Shown here one piece after another: positions 145 to 16,719 of a stretch of DNA of 16,748 nucleotides (the first letter of the stretch is position 1; every line of letters starts with the position of its first letter). Source of the stretch: Promethearchaeota archaeon (GTDB taxonomy: Archaea > Asgardarchaeota > Lokiarchaeia > Sigyniarchaeales > SOKP01); assembly GCA_016839705.1 (NCBI GenBank), contig JAEOTR010000069.1, positions 1 to 16,748 on the forward strand, given 5' to 3'. The position numbers were made by a program, and so were the translations under genes. The notes beneath the pieces are model-generated. The model worked only from the letters and a program-made list of their open reading frames with translations, had not been told where the DNA came from and did no database searches.

Positions 145-1356
145 CTATAATATTTCTTTTAATAAATTCACTAAATCCATGAGTTGGATATCATAATTAT
201 GTTCTTTTATGGCATCTGCGAAATTACGCTCACAGAATGGACAAGTAGTGACCAATATTTCTGCTTCTGTTTCTAATGCTTCTTCAACGCGATTGCTTGC
301 CATTTCCAAAGCCCACTCAGAAAATCCAGCTTTAACACCTCCTCCAGCACCGCAACATGTTGCATCTCCCTTAATTTTGCGCATTTCTTCTAACTCAATC
401 CCAGGAATACTTTTAATAATTTCTCTTGGTTCATCATACATTCCAGCATGGCGACCGAGATGGCATGGATCGTGATAGGTAACTTTTCTCTTTCCATTTG
501 AATTCCTTTTAAATTCAATTTTTCCTTCATCTAGGAGCCTTTTGATATATTCTGAAATATGGAGAACTTCAAAGGGTAAATTATCTTCCGAAGCTTCATT
601 GTAAAGAATTCTCGAGTAATCTTCTTTAATGGTTCGATAACAACCTGCACAAGAAGTAACAATGGTTTTTATATTTTTATTTCTAAATAATTCAAGATTA
701 TGCTGGGCTTGGTTTATTGCGATTTCTCTTTGCCCTGTTCTAAGTAGTGGTGATCCGCAGCACCATTCCTCCTGAAAGATGGAGAATTTGACGCCTATTT
801 TCTGGAGAACTTCAAAAGTATTTCTAGCTAATTCTTTTTCACGATAGGATGATGTACAGCCTACAAAATATCCAATTTCTGGATCTTCGGGATTTTCAAA
901 ATCATCAGGGAGCCAAGATAACCTATCTTCATGTTTTTCAAGATATGGATTATGCTCTTTAGCAGTATGATTTCCGAAATTAATAGCATTTTCCGTACAA
1001 AATCCATTTTTAAATGCTTCAGCCCGTGCAAATTCAATTATATCTACTGCAAATTCTGATCCCAATTTTCGGCTCAGGAGTTTACAATTCTCACCACAGT
1101 TTCCACATGTAGTGCAAGCATATAGAATTTTACTCATATGGTCACTCCATTCGAGTTCATTAGACATTAACCCGTAAATTAACCACAGGCGTCCGCCCGT
1201 ACTGAAAGATTCAAATTTGAACTTTTTATAACTCGGGCAGTTAATGTCTATACTATCACTCGTGAATTTGCAATAACCACATCTAAAGCACCTGTGTATC
1301 ATTTGTTCATAATATTTTAATCCCAACTCTTCTCGACTTTTTTGGTTTGATAACAT
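145..1356 (-). CDS. Fe-S oxidoreductase subunit, GlcF/GlpC/HdrD-like (2x[4Fe-4S] domain plus two CCG domains)
   Basis: Ferredoxin motifs CFRCGYC...CP and CTTCGNCGENC. CCG-domain motifs YFVGC, WCCGSP, TSCAGC, YHDPCHLGR, CCGAGGG and TTCPFC. Confidence 0.92.
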   Translation of the reverse strand: MLSNQKSREELGLKYYEQMIHRCFRCGYCKFTSDSIDINCPSYKKFKFESFSTGGRLWLIYGLMSNELEWSDHMSKILYACTTCGNCGENCKLLSRKLGSEFAVDIIEFARAEAFKNGFCTENAINFGNHTAKEHNPYLEKHEDRLSWLPDDFENPEDPEIGYFVGCTSSYREKELARNTFEVLQKIGVKFSIFQEEWCCGSPLLRTGQREIAINQAQHNLELFRNKNIKTIVTSCAGCYRTIKEDYSRILYNEASEDNLPFEVLHISEYIKRLLDEGKIEFKRNSNGKRKVTYHDPCHLGRHAGMYDEPREIIKSIPGIELEEMRKIKGDATCCGAGGGVKAGFSEWALEMASNRVEEALETEAEILVTTCPFCERNFADAIKEHNYDIQLMDLVNLLKEIL

Positions 1357-1359
1357 TTT

Positions 1360-2730
1360 TTACACCTCCCAATTTCCGGGGTTCATTATTCCATTTGGAT
1401 CTAAAAGATTTCGAACTCGTTTAAATAATCCCTTAAATTGCGGATCTGCTTTTTCCATAGTGAGTTTTTGACCTATTAATTCTGTTTTCCAGGGAACTCC
1501 GCCTATTTCCAAAACCATTTTATTCGTTTCTTCTAACCCTTCCCTAGCATTTTTCCTATCATCAGGATCTGCCCGATTAAACGGGAATGTTACGGAAAAC
1601 ATGACCGCATGACCGCTTCCTATTATTCTACATAATAATGATGGTACTAACCCATATTTTTCTGAAATTAATACTCCTTTTTCGATTGCTTCAGGAATTT
1701 TTTCCAATGGAATAAATGAGCCCACATATTCGAAACCACCTCCCTTTCTCCAGTCTGCTGCAAATGCAGCGGTATATTGGGGATGGTCCATCATATAAGT
1801 CCTTGTTTGACCCTGTATTGGAGCTGCTTGAGTGTTATTTTCTTTAAATATCTTTTCTATCGTAGTCCTTTTTAAATCCATTTCTTCTGTTGAGTTTCCG
1901 GTGATATATACCATAACAGCGCAAAATTGTTTCATATTACTGGGAGTATGGGAATGTCCTATCATAACATCTTCTGCGAATTCCGTAAAGGTTATTTTAG
2001 ACATTAAATTTGGAAGCCCATTAAAATCTTGAGTAAGTCCGAAAATTATGTCCCGTTCTTTTGGTTTAGGAAATAATTTTATGGACACTTTTGTAATAAC
2101 CCCCATAGTGCCGAAACTGCTTGTGAATAAACCAATTAAATCTGGGATAGGTGCTTTTGAAAACCAATATTCTGAAATTGCACAAGAACCCAATTTGGTT
2201 ATTTCTCCTGTAGGTAGCACGACTTCTAAGCCATTAATCATGCTTGCATGGTGTCCAAACTTCTGGGAGAGAGAACCTGATCCGTGAATTAATACGTTCC
2301 CTGCAATAGTTGCAGATGTTGGTGCGTCAGGAATCGGAGCTTGTAAATTTGGATGATATTCTTTCAAATATGATACTAGTGATCCTGTTGTTACACCCGC
2401 TTCTAAAACTGCATATCGTCCCAAACTATTAATTTCTAGAATTTTATCCATTCTTTTCATATCTATGACGATTCCTTTATGAACAGGAAGGATCAATCCA
2501 CTTAAAGTAAGACCTCCTCCCATAGGAATTAGAGGGATTATTTCTTTATTTGCTAGTTTTACGATTTTTTGTATTTCCTCAACAGTTTTAGGCATCACCA
2601 CGAAATCGACAGAACGGGGTTCAGAAGCCCCAGGGTCTTGTGAATATATGAAAAGCTCTTCTGGTTTATTTGAAGCAAAGTCTTTTCCGACAATATCTTC
2701 TAAATCTCTTAAAATGCTTTCTTTTTTCAT
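1360..2730 (-). CDS. FAD-linked oxidoreductase, VAO/PCMH superfamily (GlcD-like scaffold), substrate unknown
   Basis: FAD-binding motifs PMGGGLTLSG, EAGV, SATIAGN, GLEVVLPTG, GTMGVITK and the terminal LDPNGIMNPG. The GEHG and HxGDGNxH motifs are absent. Confidence 0.9.
   Translation of the reverse strand: MKKESILRDLEDIVGKDFASNKPEELFIYSQDPGASEPRSVDFVVMPKTVEEIQKIVKLANKEIIPLIPMGGGLTLSGLILPVHKGIVIDMKRMDKILEINSLGRYAVLEAGVTTGSLVSYLKEYHPNLQAPIPDAPTSATIAGNVLIHGSGSLSQKFGHHASMINGLEVVLPTGEITKLGSCAISEYWFSKAPIPDLIGLFTSSFGTMGVITKVSIKLFPKPKERDIIFGLTQDFNGLPNLMSKITFTEFAEDVMIGHSHTPSNMKQFCAVMVYITGNSTEEMDLKRTTIEKIFKENNTQAAPIQGQTRTYMMDHPQYTAAFAADWRKGGGFEYVGSFIPLEKIPEAIEKGVLISEKYGLVPSLLCRIIGSGHAVMFSVTFPFNRADPDDRKNAREGLEETNKMVLEIGGVPWKTELIGQKLTMEKADPQFKGLFKRVRNLLDPNGIMNPGNWEV
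1363..1369 (-). promoter_or_regulatory. Shine-Dalgarno GGAGGTG inside the last codons of the FAD oxidase gene, serving the Fe-S subunit
   Basis: Minus strand reads TGG GAG GTG TAA AAA ATG. Confidence 0.75.
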
Positions 2731-2858: not shown

Positions 2859-3242
2859 TCATGCTTCTATCAAGTCCCTGCTAGCGATTATATTCACATC
2901 TAATCCTATTACTTTTTCAATTAACACGTCTCCCATTTTAATGGGAGGTTTAACTTCTGTCATTGCAATTTCTCTTAAAGTATCTTGAAGTTTCTCTTTA
3001 GGGATAGGGATGTCTGATCTTACAGGTATTAATGGGAGGAAACCATTTTTCACCCTAATAGTTGTTGTAAGAATTCTTTTTGGAGCAATAAATTCTTCTC
3101 GGCCATACACTTCTCCCCTTTTACATGAATGCCCTTCAATAATTAGTTCACCATTAACATTTTCAACATGAACTAAACAACCTGTAGGACATACTATACA
3201 GCGAATATCTTTACTTCCTTCTGGAATTTCTGACTCTGACAT
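2859..3242 (-). CDS. DUF1667-type small Cys-rich (probable Fe-S) subunit
   Basis: Motifs CIVCPTGC and CKRG..Y, then PKRILTTT and the terminal IIASR. It is the third gene of the GlpA-like/oxidoreductase/DUF1667 triad. Confidence 0.88.
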   Translation of the reverse strand: MSESEIPEGSKDIRCIVCPTGCLVHVENVNGELIIEGHSCKRGEVYGREEFIAPKRILTTTIRVKNGFLPLIPVRSDIPIPKEKLQDTLREIAMTEVKPPIKMGDVLIEKVIGLDVNIIASRDLIEA

Positions 3243-3259
3243 TTATCTAACCTTTAAAA

Positions 3260-4558
3260 TCAGTCTTCTTCAATTAAAACCTCTGGACGAGGTATTACTT
3301 CAATTTCTATATTTCTACAAGAAGGATCGATTGGTAATTCACTTAAATTTAATTTTATTTCAAGCATTTCACTAGGAATTACATAACTTCTCTTTCTTTT
3401 AAATAAGACCTTGTTATTTTCGTCTTTAAATTGAATTTGAATCCTTCTATCTGGTCTTTTTGCACGAAAAGTAAAAATTATATCTTTATCTAATTCAGAT
3501 TTTTTGATTAAATCAGGTTTCACATATCCGACATTTTCACCAGGAACACACGTAATTAGTCCTACTTTTTCTTGTTCTCTACCATATCTATTTTTAATGT
3601 AATCTATGGCATTTAATCCTGCTCGTTTGGCTTCAGCTGTAACTAGATCAACAAGATCATGGACCTGCAAAACATTTCCGCAGGCAAATACCCCCTTTAT
3701 GGTAGTTTCTAAATTATTATCTATAATAGGACCACCCATTTCTGAAATTTTTGCCCCTGCTTCTCTTGTTAATTCATTTTCGGGTATTAATCCAACTGAC
3801 AACAATAGGGTGTCGCATTCAATAAACTTCTCAGAGCCTATAACTCTATCGAAATTTCTGTCGACTTTTGAGATGGTTACACCTTTCACTCTATCTCTCC
3901 CATGAATTTTTGTAACTGTATAACTTGTTATAAGTGGAATTCCGTAATCTTCTAAACACTGCACTTGATTTCTTATTAACCCACTTACATAGGGTAAGAT
4001 TTCAACAACTGCTTTCACTTGACATCCTTCCCAGGTTAAACGTCGAGCCATTATCATACCGATATCTCCACTACCTAAGATTACATAAGACCTACCTGGA
4101 AGATAACCTTCAATATTTACAAATCTTTGGGCTTGTCCCGCGGTATATATTCCCGCAGGACGAAAACCTGGCATATTAATTGACCCTCTCGTTCTTTCAC
4201 GGCACCCCATAGCAAGAATAATCGCTTTAGCTTTAATTTCGATGAGCCCCTCTTTATTATTTACCGCGTATACTGTTTTTTCAGGTGTAAATTCAATTAC
4301 CATTGTATCTAGTTTATAAGGAATTTCTAACTCTTTGACTTGGTTAATAAACCTTTGAACATATTCCGGTCCTGTTAATTCTTCTTCAAATTCATGAAGA
4401 CCAAATCCATTATGTATGCACTGAAGAGTAATTCCTCCCAATTCTTTGTCACGTTCCAGAATCAAAACATTCAATCCCGCCTTATTAACGACTATAGCCG
4501 CAGCTAAGCCTGCAGAACCACCACCAATTACTACAACATCTACTTCGTAATTATTCAT
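3260..4558 (-). CDS. NAD(P)/FAD-dependent pyridine nucleotide-disulfide oxidoreductase family subunit
   Basis: Motifs GGGSAG (FAD), QCIHNGFG, AMGCRER, GSGDIG (NAD) and FACGNVLQVHDLVD. ATGA overlap with the upstream gene at 4555-4558 and GGAGGTG at 4569-4575. Confidence 0.92.
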   Translation of the reverse strand: MNNYEVDVVVIGGGSAGLAAAIVVNKAGLNVLILERDKELGGITLQCIHNGFGLHEFEEELTGPEYVQRFINQVKELEIPYKLDTMVIEFTPEKTVYAVNNKEGLIEIKAKAIILAMGCRERTRGSINMPGFRPAGIYTAGQAQRFVNIEGYLPGRSYVILGSGDIGMIMARRLTWEGCQVKAVVEILPYVSGLIRNQVQCLEDYGIPLITSYTVTKIHGRDRVKGVTISKVDRNFDRVIGSEKFIECDTLLLSVGLIPENELTREAGAKISEMGGPIIDNNLETTIKGVFACGNVLQVHDLVDLVTAEAKRAGLNAIDYIKNRYGREQEKVGLITCVPGENVGYVKPDLIKKSELDKDIIFTFRAKRPDRRIQIQFKDENNKVLFKRKRSYVIPSEMLEIKLNLSELPIDPSCRNIEIEVIPRPEVLIEED

Positions 4559-6027
4559 CCTTCATTGGCACCTCCAGAAATGTCTCTTAAAGCGATATCT
4601 TTTGTTTTTCCGACTAGGATATTAGTATCCTCCCCTCTTTTTGTTATTTCTTCATATTGTATACCTAATTCCCTTGCTAAGATCTCAATAACACGGGGAC
4701 GACAAAAACCTCCTTGGCATCTACCCATACCTGGTCTACAACGGAATTTTATTCCATCAACAGTTTTAGATCCAACAGGTGCGCGGATTGCGTCTATTAT
4801 TTCTTTCTCAGGAATAGTTTCACATCTACAAATGATCCTTCCCCACGCAGGGTCTTTATGTATCTTAGCATCAAGTTCTTCTTTAGTGAAATCTTTGAAA
4901 CGATCGGGTTTAGGTCGAATAGGATTATAGTCTTCTCGTACTTTTAATTCTAATCCTAGCAATTCAAGAAAATCAACTACTTTCTCAGCAATAGCAAAAG
5001 TTGCAGTTAAACCCGGAGATAGAATACCCGCTACGTTTATAAAACCATAAACATCAGTGTTATCTATAATAAAGTCATATGTATCTGGTACAGCTCTAAT
5101 ACCTGCAAAATTTCTAATTGAACTCCTCAAGGGTAGATTAGGAACTAATTTTTTAGCACCCTCTAAAATTTCCTTTAAGCCTGCTGTTGTTGTTGAGAGA
5201 TCTTCACGATCTGTTATATTTTGAGCATTAGGGCCAATGAAAGTATTACCATGTAAAGTGGGGCAGACTAGTATTCCCTTTGAAACCTTAGTGGCCATAG
5301 GAAAAAGCACCTTATTTAGTTGGATGGCATTTCTATCAAATAATATATATTCACCCTTTCGGGGTAATATACTGAAATAATCCAATCCTAACATTTTAGA
5401 TATTTTAGAACTAAATAACCCTGCGGCATTAATTAGATTCCTTCCTTGAAATTCTCCACCATAGGTTCTTACAGTAAATATGTAATCTTGATGTTTGATT
5501 TTTATAACTTCATGATTCCTGAAAAAGTTCACCCCATTCATAGCCGCATTTTCAGCTAAAGCGAAGGTTAATTCGTATGGACTTACAATACCAGCAGAAG
5601 GAGCATGTAAAACACCAACAACATCTTCTGTTAAGTTTGGTTCCATATCTAGTATCGTATCTTTGTCAAATATTAATTCTAAATCGGGTATCCCATCTTC
5701 AATGCCCTTTTTCCTTACTTCATCTAATTGTTTAATCTGATCATCTTCTAAAGCAACTACAAAAGAACCAATTCGTTTAAATGGAAAATTTAATTCCTTT
5801 ACTGCTTGGGTATAAAGGTTATTTCCTTTAATACACAAATATCGCTTAATGTATTCTCTAGCTGATGAATAACCCGCATGAACAACTCCTGAGTTAGCTT
5901 TTGTCGTTCCTGAGGCAATCTCTGCTTCTTTTTCCAACACACATATCTTTAAATCATACTTTGACAGTGTTCGGGCTATGCAACAGCCTGTGACTCCTCC
6001 GCCTATTATGATAACGTCATAAATCAA
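4555..6027 (-). CDS. glpA: FAD-dependent oxidoreductase with C-terminal BFD-like [2Fe-2S] domain; probable anaerobic glycerol-3-phosphate dehydrogenase subunit (GlpA/LhgO family)
   Basis: Motifs GGGVTG, TTKANSGVVHAG, PRKGEY, GPNA, FAGIRA and SPGLTA; BFD motif CRCE...GMGRCQGGFC. TTG start with an in-frame stop six codons upstream. The family call is secure; the substrate is inferred from gene context. Confidence 0.8.
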   Translation of the reverse strand: MIYDVIIIGGGVTGCCIARTLSKYDLKICVLEKEAEIASGTTKANSGVVHAGYSSAREYIKRYLCIKGNNLYTQAVKELNFPFKRIGSFVVALEDDQIKQLDEVRKKGIEDGIPDLELIFDKDTILDMEPNLTEDVVGVLHAPSAGIVSPYELTFALAENAAMNGVNFFRNHEVIKIKHQDYIFTVRTYGGEFQGRNLINAAGLFSSKISKMLGLDYFSILPRKGEYILFDRNAIQLNKVLFPMATKVSKGILVCPTLHGNTFIGPNAQNITDREDLSTTTAGLKEILEGAKKLVPNLPLRSSIRNFAGIRAVPDTYDFIIDNTDVYGFINVAGILSPGLTATFAIAEKVVDFLELLGLELKVREDYNPIRPKPDRFKDFTKEELDAKIHKDPAWGRIICRCETIPEKEIIDAIRAPVGSKTVDGIKFRCRPGMGRCQGGFCRPRVIEILARELGIQYEEITKRGEDTNILVGKTKDIALRDISGGANEG

Positions 6028-6627: not shown

Positions 6628-7020
6628 CTATTTTGTGTTATCTTCTAAGGAACTCTTAATGGAGTTAACGAAAGTATCGAAAAGTCCCACATCACTATCC
6701 CATTTCTTTAACATTTCTTCAGGATATAATTCAAAAAATTTCTCCGAAATAGCATCTAATTCCTTCTGAACTTTTTTTACCTTTATCTTGCTTGATGAAT
6801 TTGCAACAAAAAGAAAGTGGTTTCTCTTTACAATTGAAAAACGAATATTACTTAACTCGAAGTTTGAAATCCCACCCTCAGTAAGTTTTTCTGCAAATGT
6901 ATTTAGAGCACTCATAAGAGCACCAAAGAGTTGAGGATTAACTCTTGGATCTATAACACGACTATAAACAGTTGTCCCACTTTCAGTTAAAATCCATAAA
7001 TCCCGTAGTACTTTTGTCAT
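6628..7020 (-). CDS. Stand-alone longin-like domain protein (Asgard eukaryotic signature type)
   Basis: Pattern LWILTESGTTVYS (beta hairpin), QLFGALMSALNTFAEKL (helix), three short strands, then ELDAISEKFFELY and LFDTF helices, which fits longin topology. The ATG at 7020 is preferred; the ORF track uses GTG at 7032. Confidence 0.75.
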   Translation of the reverse strand: MTKVLRDLWILTESGTTVYSRVIDPRVNPQLFGALMSALNTFAEKLTEGGISNFELSNIRFSIVKRNHFLFVANSSSKIKVKKVQKELDAISEKFFELYPEEMLKKWDSDVGLFDTFVNSIKSSLEDNTK

Positions 7021-7162
7021 ATTATTACCCACTTAAAGTTTTGTTAAGTTAATAACTTATTTTAAAACAATAGTGATGTGTGATATTATGTATAATAATC
7101 TAATAAATTAAGAATTAATGATTTTGAATAGCATTTAATCTCTGTGGGGATATAATTACCTT

Positions 7163-8217: not shown

Positions 8218-9963
8218 ATGAGTCAGATCTATAATAAAATCTCAGAAACCTTGTTTCAGAAGTTTGAAGAGATAGTAGGAAAAAATTACTTCTTTACTGA
8301 AGAGGTGCATAAATGGGCCTATACTTTTGGTAGCACAATGATAGAACCAGAATGGGCTCCTGAATTAATTTTAATTCCACAAAATTTGAAACAAATTTCT
8401 GAAATTTTAAGGCTTGCTAATAAAAATAAAATCCCTGTAACACCAAGGGGAAGTGGAACAAGCTTATCAGCAGGACCTTTAACCCCCTATGGAGGGGTAA
8501 TATTAGATCTAAGCGTTATGAATAGAGTAATATCAATCGATATTGAAAATAATTTAGTTGAGGTAGAACCTGGAGTAATTTGTGATGAATTAAATGAAAA
8601 ATTAAAGCCTTATGGTTATTTTTTTCCTCCAGATCCAGGATCAAGTTCTGTTGCGACTATAGGGGGGATGGTAGCGACAAATGCCGGAGGTGTACAAGCC
8701 TTTAAATATGGGGTCACTCAAAATTATGTACTTTTTTTAGAAGTAATCTTCCCAGATGGCAATTTGGTGAAATTGGGGTCAAATGTATTAAAATCTGTAT
8801 CTTCTTACAATCTCAAAGATTTAATTATAGGATCAGAAGGAACTTTAGCGGTTATCACTCAAATAGGATTAAAGATACGTCCTTTACCTAAGGTTCGAAA
8901 AACAGGTTTATTTATGTTTGATGATATTGATAAATTAGCAGATGCTGTATTAGAAATAAGAAGAAAAGGAATTATTACTAATTTATTTGAATTTATGGAT
9001 AAAGTAACTGTCACAGCAATCTTCGAATTCTTGGGGGGTGAATTTGAGCAATATCCAAAAGATTATGCTTTATTGGCTGAAATTGATGGGTCAAATGAGA
9101 ACGCTATTCAAGAAGAGTTTTCTATTTTATTTGATATTATGATTAAAAACAATCCAACGTTTTATAAAATCGCAAATAACCTTGAAGAACGAGAAATTTT
9201 AGTAGGAGCTAGAAAATCCGCGCTTCCCGCTTATTGTAGGATAGGCCCTTCTTGTTGTGTTGAGGATTGCACAATAAAAATTACCGATTTTGCAGAGGTA
9301 GTGAAAAAATTTGAGAATATTAGGCAGGAGTTAGATATCCCGAATATTACCACCGCAATGGTTTGTCATATGGAGGGAAACATGCATCCTACTTTTATTT
9401 TTAATGAAAATGACCCTAATGATCGTGCAGATTTTAAAAAAGCAGTGGATTATTTGTATAAAAAGATTATCATCCCTATTGGTGGATCTATTACTGGAGA
9501 ACATGGAATTGGAAAAGTAAAGACCCCTTTCTTAGAATTAGAGCATGGAGATGAAGTAGTAGATCTTATGTATCAAATTAAAAAACTTCTTGATCCTAAT
9601 TTTATCTTAAATCCGGGTGTAGGGAAGGGAGACATTCGCCCCTTAAGGATAACCGATCTAAACAGAAATTTAAAAAACCAACCTAATAAACTCTTGGAAT
9701 TAAATTGCATGAGATGTGGCTTTTGTCAAACTTCTTGTCCTTCTAGGATTTTTTATAAATCTGAAGCGTATAGTCCAAGAGGCCGATTAAGCTTGTTAAA
9801 TTCATTAGTACATGATGAAATAGATTTAAAAAGTAAGGCACTTATTAATGAAATTTTTCATGCTTGTACCCTTTGCGGACTATGTTATTCTAAATGCCCT
9901 GCAGGAGTAAGAACTCATGAAATATTTGAAAAAGCAAGAGAAATTCTTCATAAGAATAGCTGA
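8218..9963 (+). CDS. FAD-linked D-2-hydroxyacid (probable D-lactate) dehydrogenase, GlcD/Dld family, fused to a C-terminal 2x[4Fe-4S] domain
   Basis: Motifs PRGSGTSLSAG, FPPDPGS, TIGGMVATNAGG, GSEGTLAVIT, HMEGNMH, TGEHGIG and LDPNFILNPG; then CMRCGFCQTSCP and CTLCGLCYSKCP. It ends 5 nt before larA. Confidence 0.9.
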   Translation: MSQIYNKISETLFQKFEEIVGKNYFFTEEVHKWAYTFGSTMIEPEWAPELILIPQNLKQISEILRLANKNKIPVTPRGSGTSLSAGPLTPYGGVILDLSVMNRVISIDIENNLVEVEPGVICDELNEKLKPYGYFFPPDPGSSSVATIGGMVATNAGGVQAFKYGVTQNYVLFLEVIFPDGNLVKLGSNVLKSVSSYNLKDLIIGSEGTLAVITQIGLKIRPLPKVRKTGLFMFDDIDKLADAVLEIRRKGIITNLFEFMDKVTVTAIFEFLGGEFEQYPKDYALLAEIDGSNENAIQEEFSILFDIMIKNNPTFYKIANNLEEREILVGARKSALPAYCRIGPSCCVEDCTIKITDFAEVVKKFENIRQELDIPNITTAMVCHMEGNMHPTFIFNENDPNDRADFKKAVDYLYKKIIIPIGGSITGEHGIGKVKTPFLELEHGDEVVDLMYQIKKLLDPNFILNPGVGKGDIRPLRITDLNRNLKNQPNKLLELNCMRCGFCQTSCPSRIFYKSEAYSPRGRLSLLNSLVHDEIDLKSKALINEIFHACTLCGLCYSKCPAGVRTHEIFEKAREILHKNS

Positions 9964-9968
9964 AAAAA

Positions 9969-11243
9969 ATGGTAAAAATTGATTACGGTAAAGAGGGTTT
10001 AGAAATCTCTATTAATCCCTCATGGAATGTAACTATTTTTCATCCTAGGGCGCAAGCAGCGTTAGAAAATCCCATCAAGCAAATCAGGATGGCAATTAAA
10101 AACCCAATCAAAGGAAAATCCTTACAGAAAATAATTGAAGACAAAAAAAAAATTAATAAAATATGTATAGTCGTTTCAGATGTAACACGTCCCGTTCCCT
10201 CACACATTATTCTTGAAGGTTTAATCGGAGAATTAAATGATTATGGAATTTATGACAACCAAATCTTAATATTACTCGCTACTGGCTTACACAGACCATC
10301 AAGATCAGATGAAATAGAGAGAATAATTGGAAAAAAATTGATAGATAGATTAGAAGTTAAAAATCATGTGGCTACTGATATAAATTCACTCCAATATTTT
10401 GGGAATACTGAAGAAAATACCCCCATCTATATCAACAAGTATTATTGCACAAGTGATGTAAAAATAATAACGGGGTATGTAGAACCTCATTTTTTCTTTG
10501 GTTTTTCCGGTGGAAGAAAGTCTATAATTCCAGGTATTGCTGGGAACGAAACTATCCAAACAAACCATTCAGCTGAGAAGATTTCATCCCCATTTTCTCG
10601 TTTTGGGATCTATAAAGAAAATCTACATCATAAAAATTCAATGGAAATATGTCAGATGGTGGGTGTGGATTTTACGGTTAATGTTTGTATAAATAAAAAC
10701 CACGAAATTGTACAAGTTGCTGCAGGAGATTTTGAAAAAGTTCATGAAACTCTTGTAGATTACCAATTCAAACATTTATGTACTGAAATAAAAGAGCCCT
10801 ATGACATTGTAATATGTGGAAATGGAGGATATCCATTAGATTTAAATTTATATCAAGCGGTCAAAAGTATGGCTTTAGGAGAATTAGCAGTTAAACAAGA
10901 TGGAACTATTATTTCTGTAAATGAATGTATTGATGGAATAGGTGAAGAGATGTTTAAAGAATTACTTTTTTCAGGGAAAAGCCCTGAGGATCTATATAAT
11001 TCAATTATAAATAGGGAGATTATAGTCCCGGATCAATGGGAAATCCAGATTTTGGCTCGAATTCTTATGAAATCAGATGTTTTCGTAGTTTCAAGGCTTA
11101 AGGAAAATGAAATAGGAAATATAGGTTTGAAATATGCAAGTAATGTTGAAGAAGCTATAAATGAATCAATCAAAAAATATGGCCCCAGGGCAAGAATATT
11201 AATTTTGCCAAACGGCCCTCAAACCCTCCCTCTCTTAAAATAA
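9969..11243 (+). CDS. larA: Nickel-pincer nucleotide-dependent lactate (2-hydroxyacid) racemase
   Basis: All LarA hallmark motifs are present: SDVTRP, ATGLHR, EPHFFFGFSGGRKS, TNHS, GGYPLDLNLYQAVK and PDQW. Confidence 0.93.
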   Translation: MVKIDYGKEGLEISINPSWNVTIFHPRAQAALENPIKQIRMAIKNPIKGKSLQKIIEDKKKINKICIVVSDVTRPVPSHIILEGLIGELNDYGIYDNQILILLATGLHRPSRSDEIERIIGKKLIDRLEVKNHVATDINSLQYFGNTEENTPIYINKYYCTSDVKIITGYVEPHFFFGFSGGRKSIIPGIAGNETIQTNHSAEKISSPFSRFGIYKENLHHKNSMEICQMVGVDFTVNVCINKNHEIVQVAAGDFEKVHETLVDYQFKHLCTEIKEPYDIVICGNGGYPLDLNLYQAVKSMALGELAVKQDGTIISVNECIDGIGEEMFKELLFSGKSPEDLYNSIINREIIVPDQWEIQILARILMKSDVFVVSRLKENEIGNIGLKYASNVEEAINESIKKYGPRARILILPNGPQTLPLLK

Positions 11244-11454: not shown

Positions 11455-13203
11455 GTGGAGTTTCTCAAGAAGATTATAAACAGAAAGATGCCGAAAATTT
11501 TAGTAAAATTAAGGAATATCACAGCAATAAGCTATATTACAATTACGTTAAACTTAATTTGTATAGCATTTGGTATCCTATACATTATAAATCCGTTGAT
11601 TTCAATTTTAATGAATATTTTTGGAATAATCCTCGTTTTAACTATTTTTGAAAATCTCTTGTTTATATATTTTACTCTTCATAAAAAAAATATTCTGAGG
11701 GTAAAAACGCAATATATCAGTTACGGCTTTTTGCTTCTCATCATTATTGCTATTCCTTGTATGATGTTAGGTAATTTACTTCTATCTGTAATATATTCAA
11801 ATAAGCTAATGGATACTATAGGTGCATATCTATTATTATATCTTGGGTATTTCGGGATTTTTAGTTATGGATTTTCATTTGCCCTATTTGAACTCAAACT
11901 ACTCTCTAATATTGATTTATATCTCTTTAAATTCTCATTATTTACTACAAATACGATAAGGCATAGCAGAATAAGGAAAATTTCAAGAAAAATATTAGTT
12001 ACATTATCAAGAATTACGTTTATTTTCGGTATTGTATTTGCTGTAGTTATAATATTTGGGTCATTTGAAGTAGTTACGACTTTTGTAGCTATTGTTTCTG
12101 GTCAATTTGGCACTTTCTTTTCAATAATATTTCTAGCAAATACACTTTTGCTTTTAAAGTTAAAACGTCGAAAAAGAACCACGAAAAAATATTACAAGAC
12201 AGCATTAATTGGATTTTTTGTTTCTGGGTGTTTGTTAATGCCATTATTTTTTACAAATACAACCATAAAAAATGCTGAAAATACATTTTCAACTGCTTTT
12301 GGTAGTAATTGGAGAGATCAAATTCCCTCTGGATCAAATGATTATTTCTTACCAACACCCTTTTCTCTCACAAGTTATTTTTTAGGCTCTCGACCAAAGG
12401 CATCCATAATCGAAACCAATACTCTCTTTTATAATGATGAAGGTATAAAACTTTACTTCGATTCTTATAAAGCTTTAAATGGAGGGGAAAGCCTTCCGGG
12501 AGAAAACTCAGTTATAATTCGAATTCATGGAGGAAGTTGGGTTTCTGGTGATAAGGGAATGATGAATATGATGCAGATGAATAAATACTTTGCAGCACAA
12601 GGATATATTGTATTTGATATTCAATATGGCTTGGATCAGAACCTATTATTCGGGTTAGATCCACTAACTCCCGAATATAAAAAAGGAAACTTTGATATAG
12701 ATGATATGATGCGCCATATAGGAGTATTTACTCAATACCTTGTGTCACATGCAGATGAGTATGGAGCAAATTTAAATTCGGTATTTGTGAGTGGAGGATC
12801 AGCAGGAGGACACCTTGCTAGCGCAGTTGCTCTAGCAATAGCAAGCGGGAACTACACGGAAATATTTGGAACAGGTTTAACAATAAAAGGTTTAATCCCG
12901 TTCTACCCTGCAAATGGTCAAATGGTTTTCTTTGGGATTAGTGGGAGTTATGAATTTACAAACCCCGAAAATTTAATAGGTCAAAATAGCCCCCCATGCC
13001 TAATTTTTCAAGGAACTCATGATATCCTTAATTATTTTAGTATTTCCGAAAGAATTAGAAATAATTACCGCGCTAAAGGAATCAGTGAATGTGCAATTTT
13101 ATGGATGCCATTTGGAGGTCATGCTTCTGATTTTTACTTCACAGGTTATTATAATCAAATCTTCCTCTATTTTATGGAAAGATTCATGTATCTATATCAT
13201 TAG
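11455..13203 (+). CDS. Polytopic membrane protein with C-terminal HSL-family (GDXG-type) esterase/lipase domain
   Basis: About seven hydrophobic segments in the first ~270 aa, then the HGGSW oxyanion motif, GGSAGG nucleophile, GTHD acid and GGHASD His. The start is either GTG 11455 or ATG 11488. Confidence 0.88.
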   Translation: MEFLKKIINRKMPKILVKLRNITAISYITITLNLICIAFGILYIINPLISILMNIFGIILVLTIFENLLFIYFTLHKKNILRVKTQYISYGFLLLIIIAIPCMMLGNLLLSVIYSNKLMDTIGAYLLLYLGYFGIFSYGFSFALFELKLLSNIDLYLFKFSLFTTNTIRHSRIRKISRKILVTLSRITFIFGIVFAVVIIFGSFEVVTTFVAIVSGQFGTFFSIIFLANTLLLLKLKRRKRTTKKYYKTALIGFFVSGCLLMPLFFTNTTIKNAENTFSTAFGSNWRDQIPSGSNDYFLPTPFSLTSYFLGSRPKASIIETNTLFYNDEGIKLYFDSYKALNGGESLPGENSVIIRIHGGSWVSGDKGMMNMMQMNKYFAAQGYIVFDIQYGLDQNLLFGLDPLTPEYKKGNFDIDDMMRHIGVFTQYLVSHADEYGANLNSVFVSGGSAGGHLASAVALAIASGNYTEIFGTGLTIKGLIPFYPANGQMVFFGISGSYEFTNPENLIGQNSPPCLIFQGTHDILNYFSISERIRNNYRAKGISECAILWMPFGGHASDFYFTGYYNQIFLYFMERFMYLYH

Positions 13204-14645: not shown

Positions 14646-15860
14646 ATGGCTATATTTGATATAATCATTAGCATTATAAGTATCGCAATAGGGTATTTTC
14701 TAGGTGGAATCTTACCTTCTTTTATTTTTGGTAAATTAAAAGGTATTGATATACGAGAGAAGGGAACCAAAAATGCTGGAACCTCAAATGCATTTAAAGT
14801 CTTAGGACTTACATATGCAATACCTACAGCGTTATTTGATACATTGAAAGGATTATTAGCCATGTTAATCGCATTTTCTTTAGGAGCGGAGCATATTATT
14901 ATCCAAATAAGTGGATTAGCTGCCATTGCTGGACATGTTTTTCCTTATTATCTGCATTTTAGAGGAGGACAAGGAAATGCAACCGCTACGGGGATTCTCC
15001 TTTATTACCTCGTATATTATTTTAGCGTGAGCATAGCTCAATTCTGGCAGTTTTTCTATGTGATCTTGCTTTTGATTGTATTGTTAGTCATCTTTATCTA
15101 TATTTCTAAGTCTGGTAGTCTGATGCCCATGGTACTATTTCCTTTGCTTGGTTATGCTGTTTTCTATATATACCCGACTAGTGGTTTCAATCTTTTTTTT
15201 GTTATCATCCTTATTCATATTGCTACAATAGGGATGTATAAAGTAATTACAGAGAAGAAATTAGTTATTACCGATGAACGATTTCTGTCGAGTTGGTGGA
15301 GAGTGGCTATACGCCCTGTTTCTCTTCTGTTTCTCATTTTTTATTTTATTGATGTTCAACTCGGATTAACTGTTATTGGAGTTGTAAGTTTAAGTTTTAT
15401 TGCTCTCGATATTTTTAGGTTTCTTCATAAACGGACAAATATATTGTTAACAGAAAAAACTACAGCAATTTTTAGAAAAGGTGAAGAGAAAAAATTCTCT
15501 ACAATGACATTATTTTTAATTTCTACATTCGTTATCGTGCTTTTTTTTGATTTGGAAATCGCAATAACCTCGTTAATATTTCTTGTATTTGGAGATATGT
15601 TTGGTAAAATATTTGGATTGGCATATGGGCGACATAAAATATTTGAAAAGACTTTTGAAGGTACTCTTGCTTTTTATGGATCCATAATCATTTTTGGTTA
15701 TATTCTTTATACCATGTTTAACGTACCTTTATTAATACTTATTTCTGGGGGAATAGCGGCTCCTTTAATTGAATTATTACCAATAGGAATAAATGATAAT
15801 TTTACTGTTCCTATAATAAGCGGAGCAGTGATGACCGCAACCAAAGTGTTTTTTCTATAA
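14646..15860 (+). CDS. plsY: Fusion of a PlsY-family glycerol-3-phosphate acyltransferase (N-half) and a CTP-dependent Sec59/Dgk1/Vte5-family lipid kinase (C-half)
   Basis: PlsY half: GYFLGG, DIREKGTKNAGTSNAFK, FDTLKG, GHVFP and FRGGQGNAT. Kinase half: FRKGEEKK, FGDMFGKIFGLAYGRHKIFEKTFEG and NDNFTVP. Confidence 0.85.
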   Translation: MAIFDIIISIISIAIGYFLGGILPSFIFGKLKGIDIREKGTKNAGTSNAFKVLGLTYAIPTALFDTLKGLLAMLIAFSLGAEHIIIQISGLAAIAGHVFPYYLHFRGGQGNATATGILLYYLVYYFSVSIAQFWQFFYVILLLIVLLVIFIYISKSGSLMPMVLFPLLGYAVFYIYPTSGFNLFFVIILIHIATIGMYKVITEKKLVITDERFLSSWWRVAIRPVSLLFLIFYFIDVQLGLTVIGVVSLSFIALDIFRFLHKRTNILLTEKTTAIFRKGEEKKFSTMTLFLISTFVIVLFFDLEIAITSLIFLVFGDMFGKIFGLAYGRHKIFEKTFEGTLAFYGSIIIFGYILYTMFNVPLLILISGGIAAPLIELLPIGINDNFTVPIISGAVMTATKVFFL

Positions 15861-15978: not shown

Positions 15979-16719
15979 ATGAGTTATATTGAGAAAAAAT
16001 ATTATAGCAAAATTCAAGAAATTTTTGAGAGTTTATTAATCTTAGAAAATTCTTTGTTGGATCAATTAGAAAAAAGATCTGTGAAAAACATTAATGAAAT
16101 TGCGAAACTATGTGCTAATTTTAATCATAGTATAAATGTGATTCTTAAAAAGTATTATCCTGAGATAAAAGGTATGAGTGATAAGCTTACAATCAAATCT
16201 GTGTTAAAATTCTACTATGATTTGATTCACAAGTTAACAGATTTAGTAAGAAATATAGAAAATTTTAGGAAGATAGACCAGGAATATTATGATAAATTAA
16301 TAGAGTTTATTAAGGAGAAGAATAACTTAATTTCTGGTAAGTATAAAAGGATCTGTGCTCAGGAATTAACTGCTTTTTATGACCGAAATTCAAGAAATAA
16401 TTTAGAGAAAGTTCTCTTAGAAAAAATCGAACGAAAAAGTAGACAATACTTCACAATTGGTTCTTTGGAAGAGGAAGTTAAGAAAATCGCTGTGTTATCG
16501 GGTGCTGAATCTGTAATCATTATGAATGCTGATCAACTAAGCAAGGAAGAATTAGAATCCGCTCAATCAATAATCATGTTTGACATTGGAGAATTGCAGG
16601 ATTTTAGACAATTAATTAAAATAGGGAATGAAATAAAAAAATATTTAGAATCCAAAAAGTATGAATGTGTCGTTAAAAATGATACTGTAATTACCAATGC
16701 TAAACTCCTTCCTGATTAG
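15979..16719 (+). CDS. Hypothetical protein: helical N-domain plus a C-terminal domain resembling a reduced QueG/RdhA-type fold
   Basis: 246-aa ORF, ATG to TAG, charged and helical. The ORF is well supported; the C-terminal resemblance is by eye only. Confidence 0.75.
   Translation: MSYIEKKYYSKIQEIFESLLILENSLLDQLEKRSVKNINEIAKLCANFNHSINVILKKYYPEIKGMSDKLTIKSVLKFYYDLIHKLTDLVRNIENFRKIDQEYYDKLIEFIKEKNNLISGKYKRICAQELTAFYDRNSRNNLEKVLLEKIERKSRQYFTIGSLEEEVKKIAVLSGAESVIIMNADQLSKEELESAQSIIMFDIGELQDFRQLIKIGNEIKKYLESKKYECVVKNDTVITNAKLLPD

Follow-up and report, generated by a model that had tools for sequence, protein, structure and literature searches.

The window analysed here is a stretch of 16,748 nucleotides (nt) from a Promethearchaeota archaeon (assembly GCA_016839705.1, contig JAEOTR010000069.1), and near its end lies a gene (14646-15860, forward strand, TAA stop included) for a protein, P0001, in which a PlsY-like acyltransferase domain is fused to a lipid-kinase-like domain. 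The translation from the open reading frame (ORF) list runs for 404 amino acids (aa) from an ATG start to a TAA stop and describes a membrane protein of about 14 helices; the frame is the sole long one in this interval, overlapped by a single 101-aa antisense ORF. The gene is unpaired, with a TFIIB gene 143 nt before it and a 246-aa ORF 119 nt after it, and public databases label its product PlsY. The PlsY-like domain comprises residues 15-193 (14688-15224; PF02660, E = 1.4e-31), its seven helices extending over residues ~3-202. A basic, presumably cytoplasmic linker, delimited by the secondary structure of the model described below, spans residues 198-216 (YKVITEKKLVITDERFLSS; 15237-15293), with K205, D210 and F213 conserved within the Asgard set. 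The lipid-kinase-like domain, also of seven helices and delimited by profile searches and structural matches, occupies residues 217-404 (15294-15857). These features, and the motifs given below, lie on the forward strand.

The two-domain architecture is common to hundreds of homologues of ~400 aa at identities down to 30%, and because so many homologues share it, the fusion is not an assembly artefact. Full-length homologues of P0001 span 30-91% identity, and 51 of 53 representatives of ~400 aa (mutual identity at most 50%) carry both PF02660 and the C-terminal domain. Conservation was counted over 71 fusions, consisting of 24 Asgard sequences and 47 representatives at no more than 50% identity. 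From a 71-sequence alignment we built an AlphaFold2 model of P0001 with a mean predicted local distance difference test (pLDDT) of 94.1 and a predicted template modelling score (pTM) of 0.88, which was compared exhaustively with 48,161 PDB chains; an earlier model from 24 close homologues only had reached a pLDDT of 67, and with it Foldseek was uninformative for the C-half. A preliminary description of this DNA had claimed a fusion of PlsY to a CTP-dependent lipid kinase, with specified motif deviations. A conserved fusion of a PlsY-like domain to a probable member of the CTP-transferase/prenol-kinase superfamily is borne out, and every motif quoted there is present in the 404-aa frame.

The N-half of P0001 matches PF02660 (G3P_acyltransf) over residues 15-193 at 110 bits against a cut-off of 24.1. 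In the PDB, the sole match of a profile of 24 N-halves is Aquifex PlsY (5xj5, E = 1.8e-21), and the same structure is the top structural match of the model (Z 16.6, root-mean-square deviation (rmsd) 3.3, 178 residues aligned over P0001 residues 6-207); Foldseek also matches the N-half to PlsY (E = 2e-5). The cut-off of the PlsY equivalog TIGR00023, 137.2 bits, is reached neither by P0001 (91 bits) nor by its N-half alone (96 bits), and P0001 falls far under the cut-offs of the other PlsY equivalog models too. In the Aquifex enzyme (aaPlsY), the acyl-phosphate site is formed by backbone amides of loop 104-107, His92, and Thr41 with Ala40 (PMC5700162). P0001 retains this 'phosphate hole' in GH (residues 96-97) and the loop FRGGQGNAT (residues 105-113; together 14931-14984, by alignment to aaPlsY), with H97 as the equivalent of His92 and an intact Gly-rich loop, and the site residues G45, N48, H97, G107, G108 and G110 are each conserved in at least 95% of the fusions.

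The pocket for glycerol-3-phosphate (G3P) has fared differently. In aaPlsY it consists of a phosphate clamp (Ser35, Arg45, Lys104, Asn180) together with Ser142 and His177, and it is described as invariable among 7,288 homologues (PMC5700162). The six corresponding residues of P0001 are T41, K51, Q109, S158, H191 and T194, the equivalents of His177 (H191) and Asn180 (T194) being mapped by sequence alignment only, and all six positions vary among the fusions. Motif 1 of P0001 (GTKNAGTSNAFK, residues 40-51; 14763-14798), placed by a gap-free hidden Markov model (HMM) alignment to aaPlsY and corresponding to canonical GSGNxGxTNxxR, retains N43, G45 and N48 and has T41 for clamp Ser35 and K51 for clamp Arg45; clamp Lys104 has become Gln109. 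Across the 71 fusions, position 41 is T, D or S, position 51 is K, R, H or others, position 109 includes Q (42 fusions), R (11), K (8) and E (5), and position 194 is variable, while the contacts to the 2-OH of G3P are S/T at position 158 in the Asgard set and E/N/D elsewhere, and H at position 191 only in the Asgard set, with F/Y elsewhere. Motif 3 (xHxxNIxRL) is absent from the fusions altogether, its remnant in P0001 being IHIAT (residues 190-194; 15213-15227), identified by alignment with canonical paralogues and canonical-type Asgard PlsY. Canonical PlsY paralogues in the same bacterial genomes as fusions have GSGNxGATNxxR, GGKG and xHxxNIxRL, and most standalone PlsYs of other Asgard families have GSGN, GKG and HRENIxRL. 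Some distant members, such as P0167, P0189 and P0191, are without even motif 1, and P0191 clusters with a protein from a Spirochaetales metagenome-assembled genome (MAG).

The C-half of P0001 itself has no match in Pfam (E up to 1) or NCBIfam, and its affiliation comes from its relatives and its fold. A profile of 24 C-halves, run against 1.84 billion representatives, retrieved 3685 proteins, including ~50 clusters of ~400-aa fusions and many standalone proteins of ~190 aa. Weak matches to PF01148 (CTP_transf_1) occur in 6 of 30 standalone relatives (best E = 3e-5) and in 1 of 53 fusions. The joint family profile finds TmCdsA (4q2e) at E = 0.016, via DxxAxxxGxxFGRxK...KSLEG, and with a profile of the Asgard C-halves alone no PDB entry is retrieved, even at E up to 10. 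Structurally, the C-half matches TmCdsA at rank 2 (Z 8.3, rmsd 7.2, 170 aa, residues 222-404) and CarS (5guf) at rank 4 (Z 7.8, rmsd 2.7, 97 aa, residues 301-402); no solved kinase of the Sec59/VTE5/FolK/Dgk1 family is among the structural matches listed for it. ESM Atlas models of standalone 190-222-aa proteins superpose on residues 203-403 of P0001 at TM scores of 0.76-0.90, and some ESM Atlas matches are named "phosphatidate cytidylyltransferase family". The C-half probably belongs to the CdsA/CarS/prenol-kinase superfamily, and two motifs, an N-terminal basic clamp and a terminal 'DDN', make us favour the kinase-type branch over CdsA/CarS. CarS itself was considered and rejected, as PF01864 matches another gene, on contig C25 (72 and 56 bits), and no part of the window.

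The motifs of the C-half are strongly conserved. An Arg-Lys-x-x-His 'charged clamp' of prenol kinases has been modelled for Plasmodium PfPolK (PMC10849223), and its probable counterpart in P0001 is WWRVAIRP (residues 217-224; 15294-15317), read as R219-V220-x-x-R223 by alignment with standalone relatives that have RKxxH or RKxxR. R219 is found in 70 and R223 in all 71 fusions, while position 220, the Lys position of the clamp, is V, I, T, K or F and alone varies freely among the motif positions of the C-half. The core nucleotide-site motif of the superfamily (FGDMFGKIFGLAYGRHKIFEKTFEGTLA, residues 315-342; 15588-15671) aligns with TmCdsA ~150-195 and reads FGDMFGK...GRHK...EKTFEGTLA (as annotated, FGD(317)MFGKIFGLAYGRHKIFEKTFEGTLA). 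Yeast Dgk1 depends on an Asp that is conserved among cytidylyltransferases, as shown by D177A (PMC2459266), and D317, present in 68 of 71 fusions, may be its equivalent by motif position. The C-terminal 'DDN' motif (ELLPIGINDNFTVP, residues 376-389; 15771-15812), common to the standalone kinase-like relatives, reads E(376)LLPIGIND(384)N(385)FTVP, with E376 in 67, D384 in 70 and N385 in 71 of the 71 fusions. In total, 17 residues of the C-half are each conserved at 90% or more: R219, R223, D255, R258, E280, S285, G316, D317, K321, G324, G328, K335, E338, G339, E376, D384 and N385. Motifs and fold thus suggest a kinase activity for the C-half, and on sequence and model both halves of P0001 look active.

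The pairing of the two domains extends beyond the fused form, as the module also occurs as two adjacent genes, with the PlsY-like gene always first. Such split pairs overlap by 4 nt at the WOR-3 locus L094 and at L123, overlap at L118/L119 and are separated by 1 nt at L121; a kinase-like gene also stands behind broken PlsY pieces at L110/L111 and behind a GGQG-type PlsY fragment at L120. The kinase-like partners in split pairs read RKxxR, and the RKxxH-type relative P0254 is without a PlsY neighbour. Standalone 'WRxxxRP' C-domains had been candidates for independent genes, which we rejected, as the readable upstream DNA shows broken or contig-truncated PlsY-like pieces. The split-form PlsY at L094 retains Ser35, Arg45, Lys104 and Asn180, and the partnership may therefore predate the loss of the clamp; because it may be older than that loss, the reason for the coupling would probably be on the donor side of the reaction. 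At L080:5995-10274 in Aminicenantes JdFR-78, a fusion is followed by a GGQG-type PlsY-like gene, FakA, FakB/DegV and then gap-pgk-tpi, so that FakA takes, behind the PlsY-like gene, the position that the kinase-like domain has in the fusion. In the ESM Atlas, a cluster of 447-aa Bacillota proteins has PlsY (PF02660) fused to the N-domain of GpsA (PF01210), which is by analogy a precedent for joining PlsY to a source of its other substrate. The general bacterial synteny of the fusion with gap, pgk, tpi and secG involves housekeeping genes and is without a functional clue. At L123:3635-5077 (reverse strand), a gene similar to glycerol-1-phosphate dehydrogenase (G1PDH; NF002022, 211 bits, under cut-off) stands tail-to-tail with the split pair.

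We scanned public genomes (one genome per prokaryotic species, 13-sequence query) and examined the best 80 of 468 relatives, which divide into 58 from Asgard MAGs and 22 from bacteria. The bacterial carriers are WOR-3, Caldithrix (Calditrichota), Latescibacterota, Aminicenantes, one Actinomycetota MAG and "Eubacteriales" MAGs, and the fusion gene is full-length in all 22 bacterial loci but the truncated L075. The fusion had first been presented as an archaeal feature, a view that does not hold, as it also occurs in several bacterial phyla beside canonical PlsX and PlsY; within the Asgard sample it was found, patchily, in one GTDB family. In each of five bacterial carriers tested, a canonical PlsY (~200 aa) and PlsX exist beside the fusion, the canonical PlsY scoring 150-178 bits with PF02660 versus 100-120 for the fusion. 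In these bacteria the fusion is a paralogue whose role is a different one. Among 301 evenly sampled Asgard genomes, full-length fusions are confined to the window's own GTDB family; in a second sample, of that family, 31 of 71 genomes (~44%), 17 of 36 high-quality genomes and 8 of 15 genomes of the same genus carry one, and at ~44% of the family the gene is accessory. Five other Asgard families have only standalone PlsY of 214-258 aa with canonical motifs and no kinase-like neighbour. Several Asgard MAGs (L035, L039, L050, L070 and others) contain tandem arrays of 2-4 diverged fusion paralogues, and because these paralogues fall in different tree clades, the duplications are old.

Trees of the N-half and of the full-length protein, both from quick searches, bear on the origin of the gene. 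In the N-half tree, all fused N-halves lie on one side of a branch marked 99*, with canonical bacterial and Asgard PlsY on the other side. The Asgard fusions nest in a 99* group with WOR-3 and Caldithrix, the Aminicenantes and Actinomycetota fusions branch deeper, and the full-length tree implies a minimum of two domain crossings. This topology is consistent with a bacterial origin of the Asgard fusions, which we consider the most likely one.

The genome from which the window derives (3.36 Mb, 93% complete) has a single PF02660 gene. Of the two partner genes that the preliminary description had singled out, PlsX was not found and a PlsC-type gene was. PlsX (PF02504) and DegV/FakB (PF02645) were found in none of the 71 family genomes searched (this genome and 70 others), of which 36 are of high quality, while the positive controls yielded both. 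Contig C78 (L002:481-2157, reverse strand) encodes a 558-aa protein in which two PlsC-type domains stand in tandem (TIGR00530 at 162 bits, which exceeds its cut-off). PlsC-type matches (PF01553), mostly of the double-domain form, occur in 63 of 71 family genomes, and a co-occurrence of PlsC-type gene and fusion was rejected, as the former is present regardless of the latter (31 of 71). GGGPS and CarS (PF01864, 72 bits) are present in the genome; at 93% completeness it has no convincing G1PDH (best NF002022 score 30 bits) and no convincing GpsA (24 bits), and tblastn with a bacterial G1PDH-like protein found nothing in it. Among the five bacterial carriers, a GGGPS/PcrB homologue occurs in three (two WOR-3 and one Caldithrix; genomes G001, G002 and G005) and a G1PDH-like gene in two (269 and 142 bits). 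With the kinase-like profile, six more paralogues turn up in the window's genome, and the place of CarS is not matched. One of these, of 248 aa, lies on one strand with GGGPS (PF01884, 179 bits) and a digeranylgeranylglycerophospholipid-reductase-like gene (440 bits) at G000:C87:79689-82646 (L091), and seems the stronger candidate for a prenol kinase linked to ether-lipid genes. The five others (L087-L090 and L092) measure 342-384 aa and carry an additional membrane region at the N terminus; two adjoin on C73, and these five are possibly dolichol or polyprenol kinases.

The conserved Asgard synteny of TFIIB, fusion, 246-aa ORF and ProRS involves housekeeping genes and offers no functional clue. 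The 246-aa ORF (15979-16719, forward strand) encodes a soluble Lys/Glu-rich protein that neither Pfam, NCBIfam nor the ESM Atlas assigns to a family. In 44 of the 58 Asgard loci it follows the fusion on the same strand at a distance of ~100 nt, and prolyl-tRNA synthetase comes next. A 582-aa protein (11455-13203, forward strand) combines a multi-helix membrane N-half with a C-terminal esterase/lipase (BD-FAE, Abhydrolase_3) that has a faint match to the LipP1 hormone-sensitive lipase, and homologues of it are encoded upstream of the fusion at 22 Asgard loci. Some 8.6 kb from the fusion and on the opposite strand (2859-6027, reverse), a triad resembling G3P dehydrogenase comprises a 490-aa FAD oxidoreductase with a BFD [2Fe-2S] domain, closest to type 2 glycerol-3-phosphate oxidase/GlpA (297 bits, under cut-off), then a 432-aa pyridine-nucleotide-disulfide oxidoreductase and lastly a DUF1667 protein. 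A 134-aa longin-domain protein of the FUZ/MON1/HPS1 type (6628-7032, reverse strand; E = 1e-7) represents a eukaryote-like trafficking domain typical of Asgard genomes. Finally, two stretches (145-2730, reverse strand, and 8218-11243, forward strand) carry FAD-linked oxidases, one of which has a 4Fe-4S dicluster tail, together with a CCG/Fe-S protein and a homologue of LarA-type lactate racemase, and look like a hydroxy-acid (lactate/glycolate-type) oxidation cluster.

We propose that a PlsY-like acyltransferase and an 'R-type' prenol-kinase-like protein, fused or encoded by overlapping genes, make up a distinct and widely distributed module, of which P0001 would be a bifunctional integral-membrane enzyme. 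Our preferred reading, which we hold tentatively and a little short of an even chance, is that this module supplies itself, the kinase-like half making a lipid phosphate, most likely an acyl-phosphate, and the PlsY-like half transferring the chain to a non-canonical acceptor. The C-half would bind CTP at the cytoplasmic face and phosphorylate a membrane lipid, most likely the carboxylate of a free fatty acid to give acyl-phosphate. This labile product would be handed directly to the N-half with its intact phosphate hole, which would then move the chain to an acceptor hydroxyl with release of phosphate. We infer that CTP is used, and likewise what the kinase acts on, how its product reaches the N-half and what accepts the chain. 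To our knowledge, acyl-phosphate is the sole known donor for the PlsY fold, and since no other supplier was found in the archaeal family, a reaction of fatty acid and CTP to acyl-phosphate is favoured. Formation of acyl-phosphate driven by a nucleoside triphosphate would be uphill and its product labile, which would favour fusion and direct hand-over. That the kinase half might bypass PlsX had been suggested from the outset, and this part of the preliminary description gains support from the failure to find PlsX or FakB in the family (0 of 71), the gene order of the split forms and the FakA/FakB genes at L080. That G3P serves as acceptor in the manner of PlsY is unlikely because the G3P contacts are not conserved in the family and the clamp is degenerate; candidate acceptors would include sn-glycerol-1-phosphate (G1P) or G3P held in a different pose, glycerol itself, and lyso- or neutral lipids.

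Several observations weigh against a self-supplied module. The known substrates of Sec59, VTE5, FolK and Dgk1 are all lipid alcohols, and phosphorylation of a carboxylate is not known for them (PMC10849223, PMC2459266). The assignment of the C-half is itself a concern, as this half matches no Pfam family, the Lys of the R-K-x-x-H clamp is Val220 in P0001 (and the His is Arg223), and a Z of ~8, as for CdsA and CarS, is a level often reached by chance among helical bundles. The fused kinase would be redundant as a source of acyl-phosphate at L080, since FakAB adjoin the fusion there, and this FakAB link is seen in only 1 of 22 bacterial loci. PlsX is already present in the bacterial carriers, and about half of the family's high-quality genomes, including some that are 99-100% complete, are without the gene. 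In addition, the lipidome reported for the one cultured Lokiarchaeon cited in PMC13400652 and PMC9385802 showed archaeal lipids only.

An alternative that is less probable, and that we nonetheless take seriously, is salvage in the opposite order, in which the PlsY-like half would acylate a neutral membrane acceptor (glycerol, monoacylglycerol or alkylglycerol) and the Dgk1-like half would then phosphorylate the product with CTP to (lyso)phosphatidate, or the kinase would act on prenol, diacylglycerol (DAG) or archaeol in an adjacent step, with the acyl donor coming from elsewhere. The characterised relatives of the C-half do act on lipid alcohols, Dgk1 on DAG (PMC2459266) and PolK, VTE5 and FolK on prenols (PMC10849223). 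An acceptor without phosphate would also fit the loss of the clamp and the acidic or neutral residues in its place (D at 41, Q/E at 109, E/N/D at 158), monoacylglycerol sits in the active site in aaPlsY crystals (PMC5700162), and the L080 operon has FakAB to supply acyl-phosphate. The archaeal family, however, has no known source of acyl-phosphate, so that the N-half would be left without a donor, and the better candidate for a prenol kinase is the paralogue that adjoins GGGPS and geranylgeranyl reductase. The membrane esterase upstream of 22 Asgard fusions and the G3P-dehydrogenase-like triad in the window would suit salvage, but unrelated genes such as that for TFIIB separate these neighbours from the fusion, and their proximity may be mere shared ancestry of the locus.

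It is unlikely that P0001 is an ordinary PlsY, whose N-half would acylate G3P (or G1P) to lysophosphatidate for a PlsC-type enzyme and whose C-half would be an unrelated passenger such as a dolichol kinase. The PF02660 match, the PlsY fold and the database name all speak for it, as do the 558-aa double PlsC-type protein in the genome and the conservative clamp substitutes of close Asgard relatives (T41, K/R at 51, S/T at 158, H191), and bacterial PlsY accepts both G1P and G3P (PMC13400652). However, the TIGR00023 score is well short of its cut-off, Lys104 has become Q or E, and the HxxN of motif 3 is absent, while clamp mutants of aaPlsY are strongly impaired, with 17% of activity left in S35T, 25% left in K104R, a loss of more than 90% in R45K and a loss of more than 92% on replacement of clamp residues by alanine (PMC5700162). 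Bacteria that carry the fusion retain a canonical PlsY as well, other Asgard families have a standalone PlsY with canonical motifs, which makes the fused type a different lineage (the 99* split), and the PlsC-type gene is distributed independently of the fusion. A passenger role for the C-half is disfavoured by the conserved fusion and gene order. A catalytically dead N-half serving as a lipid-binding scaffold or regulator of the kinase-like half, or the reverse, would fit the degenerate G3P pocket and the loss of motif 1 in P0167, P0189 and P0191, but is highly improbable given that most of the family, at only 30-40% identity, keeps the residues of both sites at 90% conservation or more, indicating selection on both.

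The self-supplied module can also be given a more specific form, in which CTP-driven activation of fatty acids, independent of PlsX and FakAB, would be followed by transfer to G1P or an ether-lipid intermediate, or, in a bolder variant, a prenyl chain would be transferred from a prenyl monophosphate made by the kinase. We give this form only a slim chance. If it were true, ester/ether or 'wrong-handed' hybrid lipids would be expected in one Asgard family, and the same hybrid lipids in FCB-group bacteria with GGGPS-like and G1PDH-like genes. The hybrid ester/ether lipids envisaged in the preliminary description are pure speculation.

The identity of this gene matters because the presence of "PlsY and PlsC but no PlsX" in Asgard archaea is a standard argument in discussions of the lipid divide and of how eukaryotic membranes arose. 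Previous studies have treated the Asgard gene simply as "PlsY", noted that PlsX is missing and called the function unresolved (PMC6737245, PMC6431249, PMC9385802, PMC13400652), and our literature search, of incomplete coverage, found no description of the fusion or of PlsY-like paralogues. The "PlsY" of this lineage is a separate, fused protein that has lost the canonical G3P pocket, is accessory and is probably of bacterial origin, and its kinase-like partner could explain the missing supplier. Since the PlsY of other Asgard families is of another type, with canonical motifs, tables of gene presence put two kinds of protein under one name. The fusion is not to be read as the ordinary first step of bacterial lipid synthesis. 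The module is also widespread in uncultured sediment bacteria beside normal PlsX and PlsY, which points to an uncharacterised lipid reaction.

Among known systems, bacterial PlsY (the acyl-phosphate:sn-glycerol-3-phosphate acyltransferase; Aquifex 5xj5-5xj9) shares with the N-half of P0001 the seven-helix fold, the motif 1 core NxGxxN, DxxKG, and the His92 equivalent and Gly-rich loop of the phosphate hole. The fusion differs from it in that the G3P contacts are replaced or variable, motif 3 (HxxNIxRL) is absent and the score lies under the equivalog cut-off, and also in its separate clade (the 99* split), its fused or operon-coupled kinase-like partner and its coexistence with a true PlsY in bacteria. 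Two routes are known to feed acyl-phosphate to PlsY, PlsX with PlsY and FakA/FakB with PlsY; PlsX uses acyl-acyl carrier protein, and FakA is a soluble ATP-dependent kinase of the DAK family with a fatty-acid-binding DegV partner. The likeness of the module to these routes is a functional analogy only, in that a supplier of acyl-phosphate is encoded beside, or works with, a PlsY-type transferase, as the C-half is homologous to neither FakA/FakB nor PlsX. CdsA and CarS (the CDP-diacylglycerol and CDP-archaeol synthases) probably belong to the same superfamily as the C-half and are its best matches among solved structures, but the second catalytic motif of CdsA is not seen in our reading of the C-half sequence. 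Like Dgk1 (PMC2459266), the C-half appears distantly akin to CdsA and CarS in sequence and fold. Judged by motifs and domain layout, the CTP-dependent polyprenol kinases (the dolichol kinase Sec59/DOLK, the phytol kinase VTE5, FolK, PfPolK and yeast Dgk1) appear to have in common with it a multi-helix membrane domain of ~190-200 residues, a basic clamp (R-V-x-x-R in P0001), a GDxxxKxxG...GRxK...K(T/S)xEG core and the DDN motif. Unlike in these kinases, the clamp Lys of the C-half is not conserved and the His is replaced by an invariant Arg, and it is this 'R-type' clade that is linked to PlsY.

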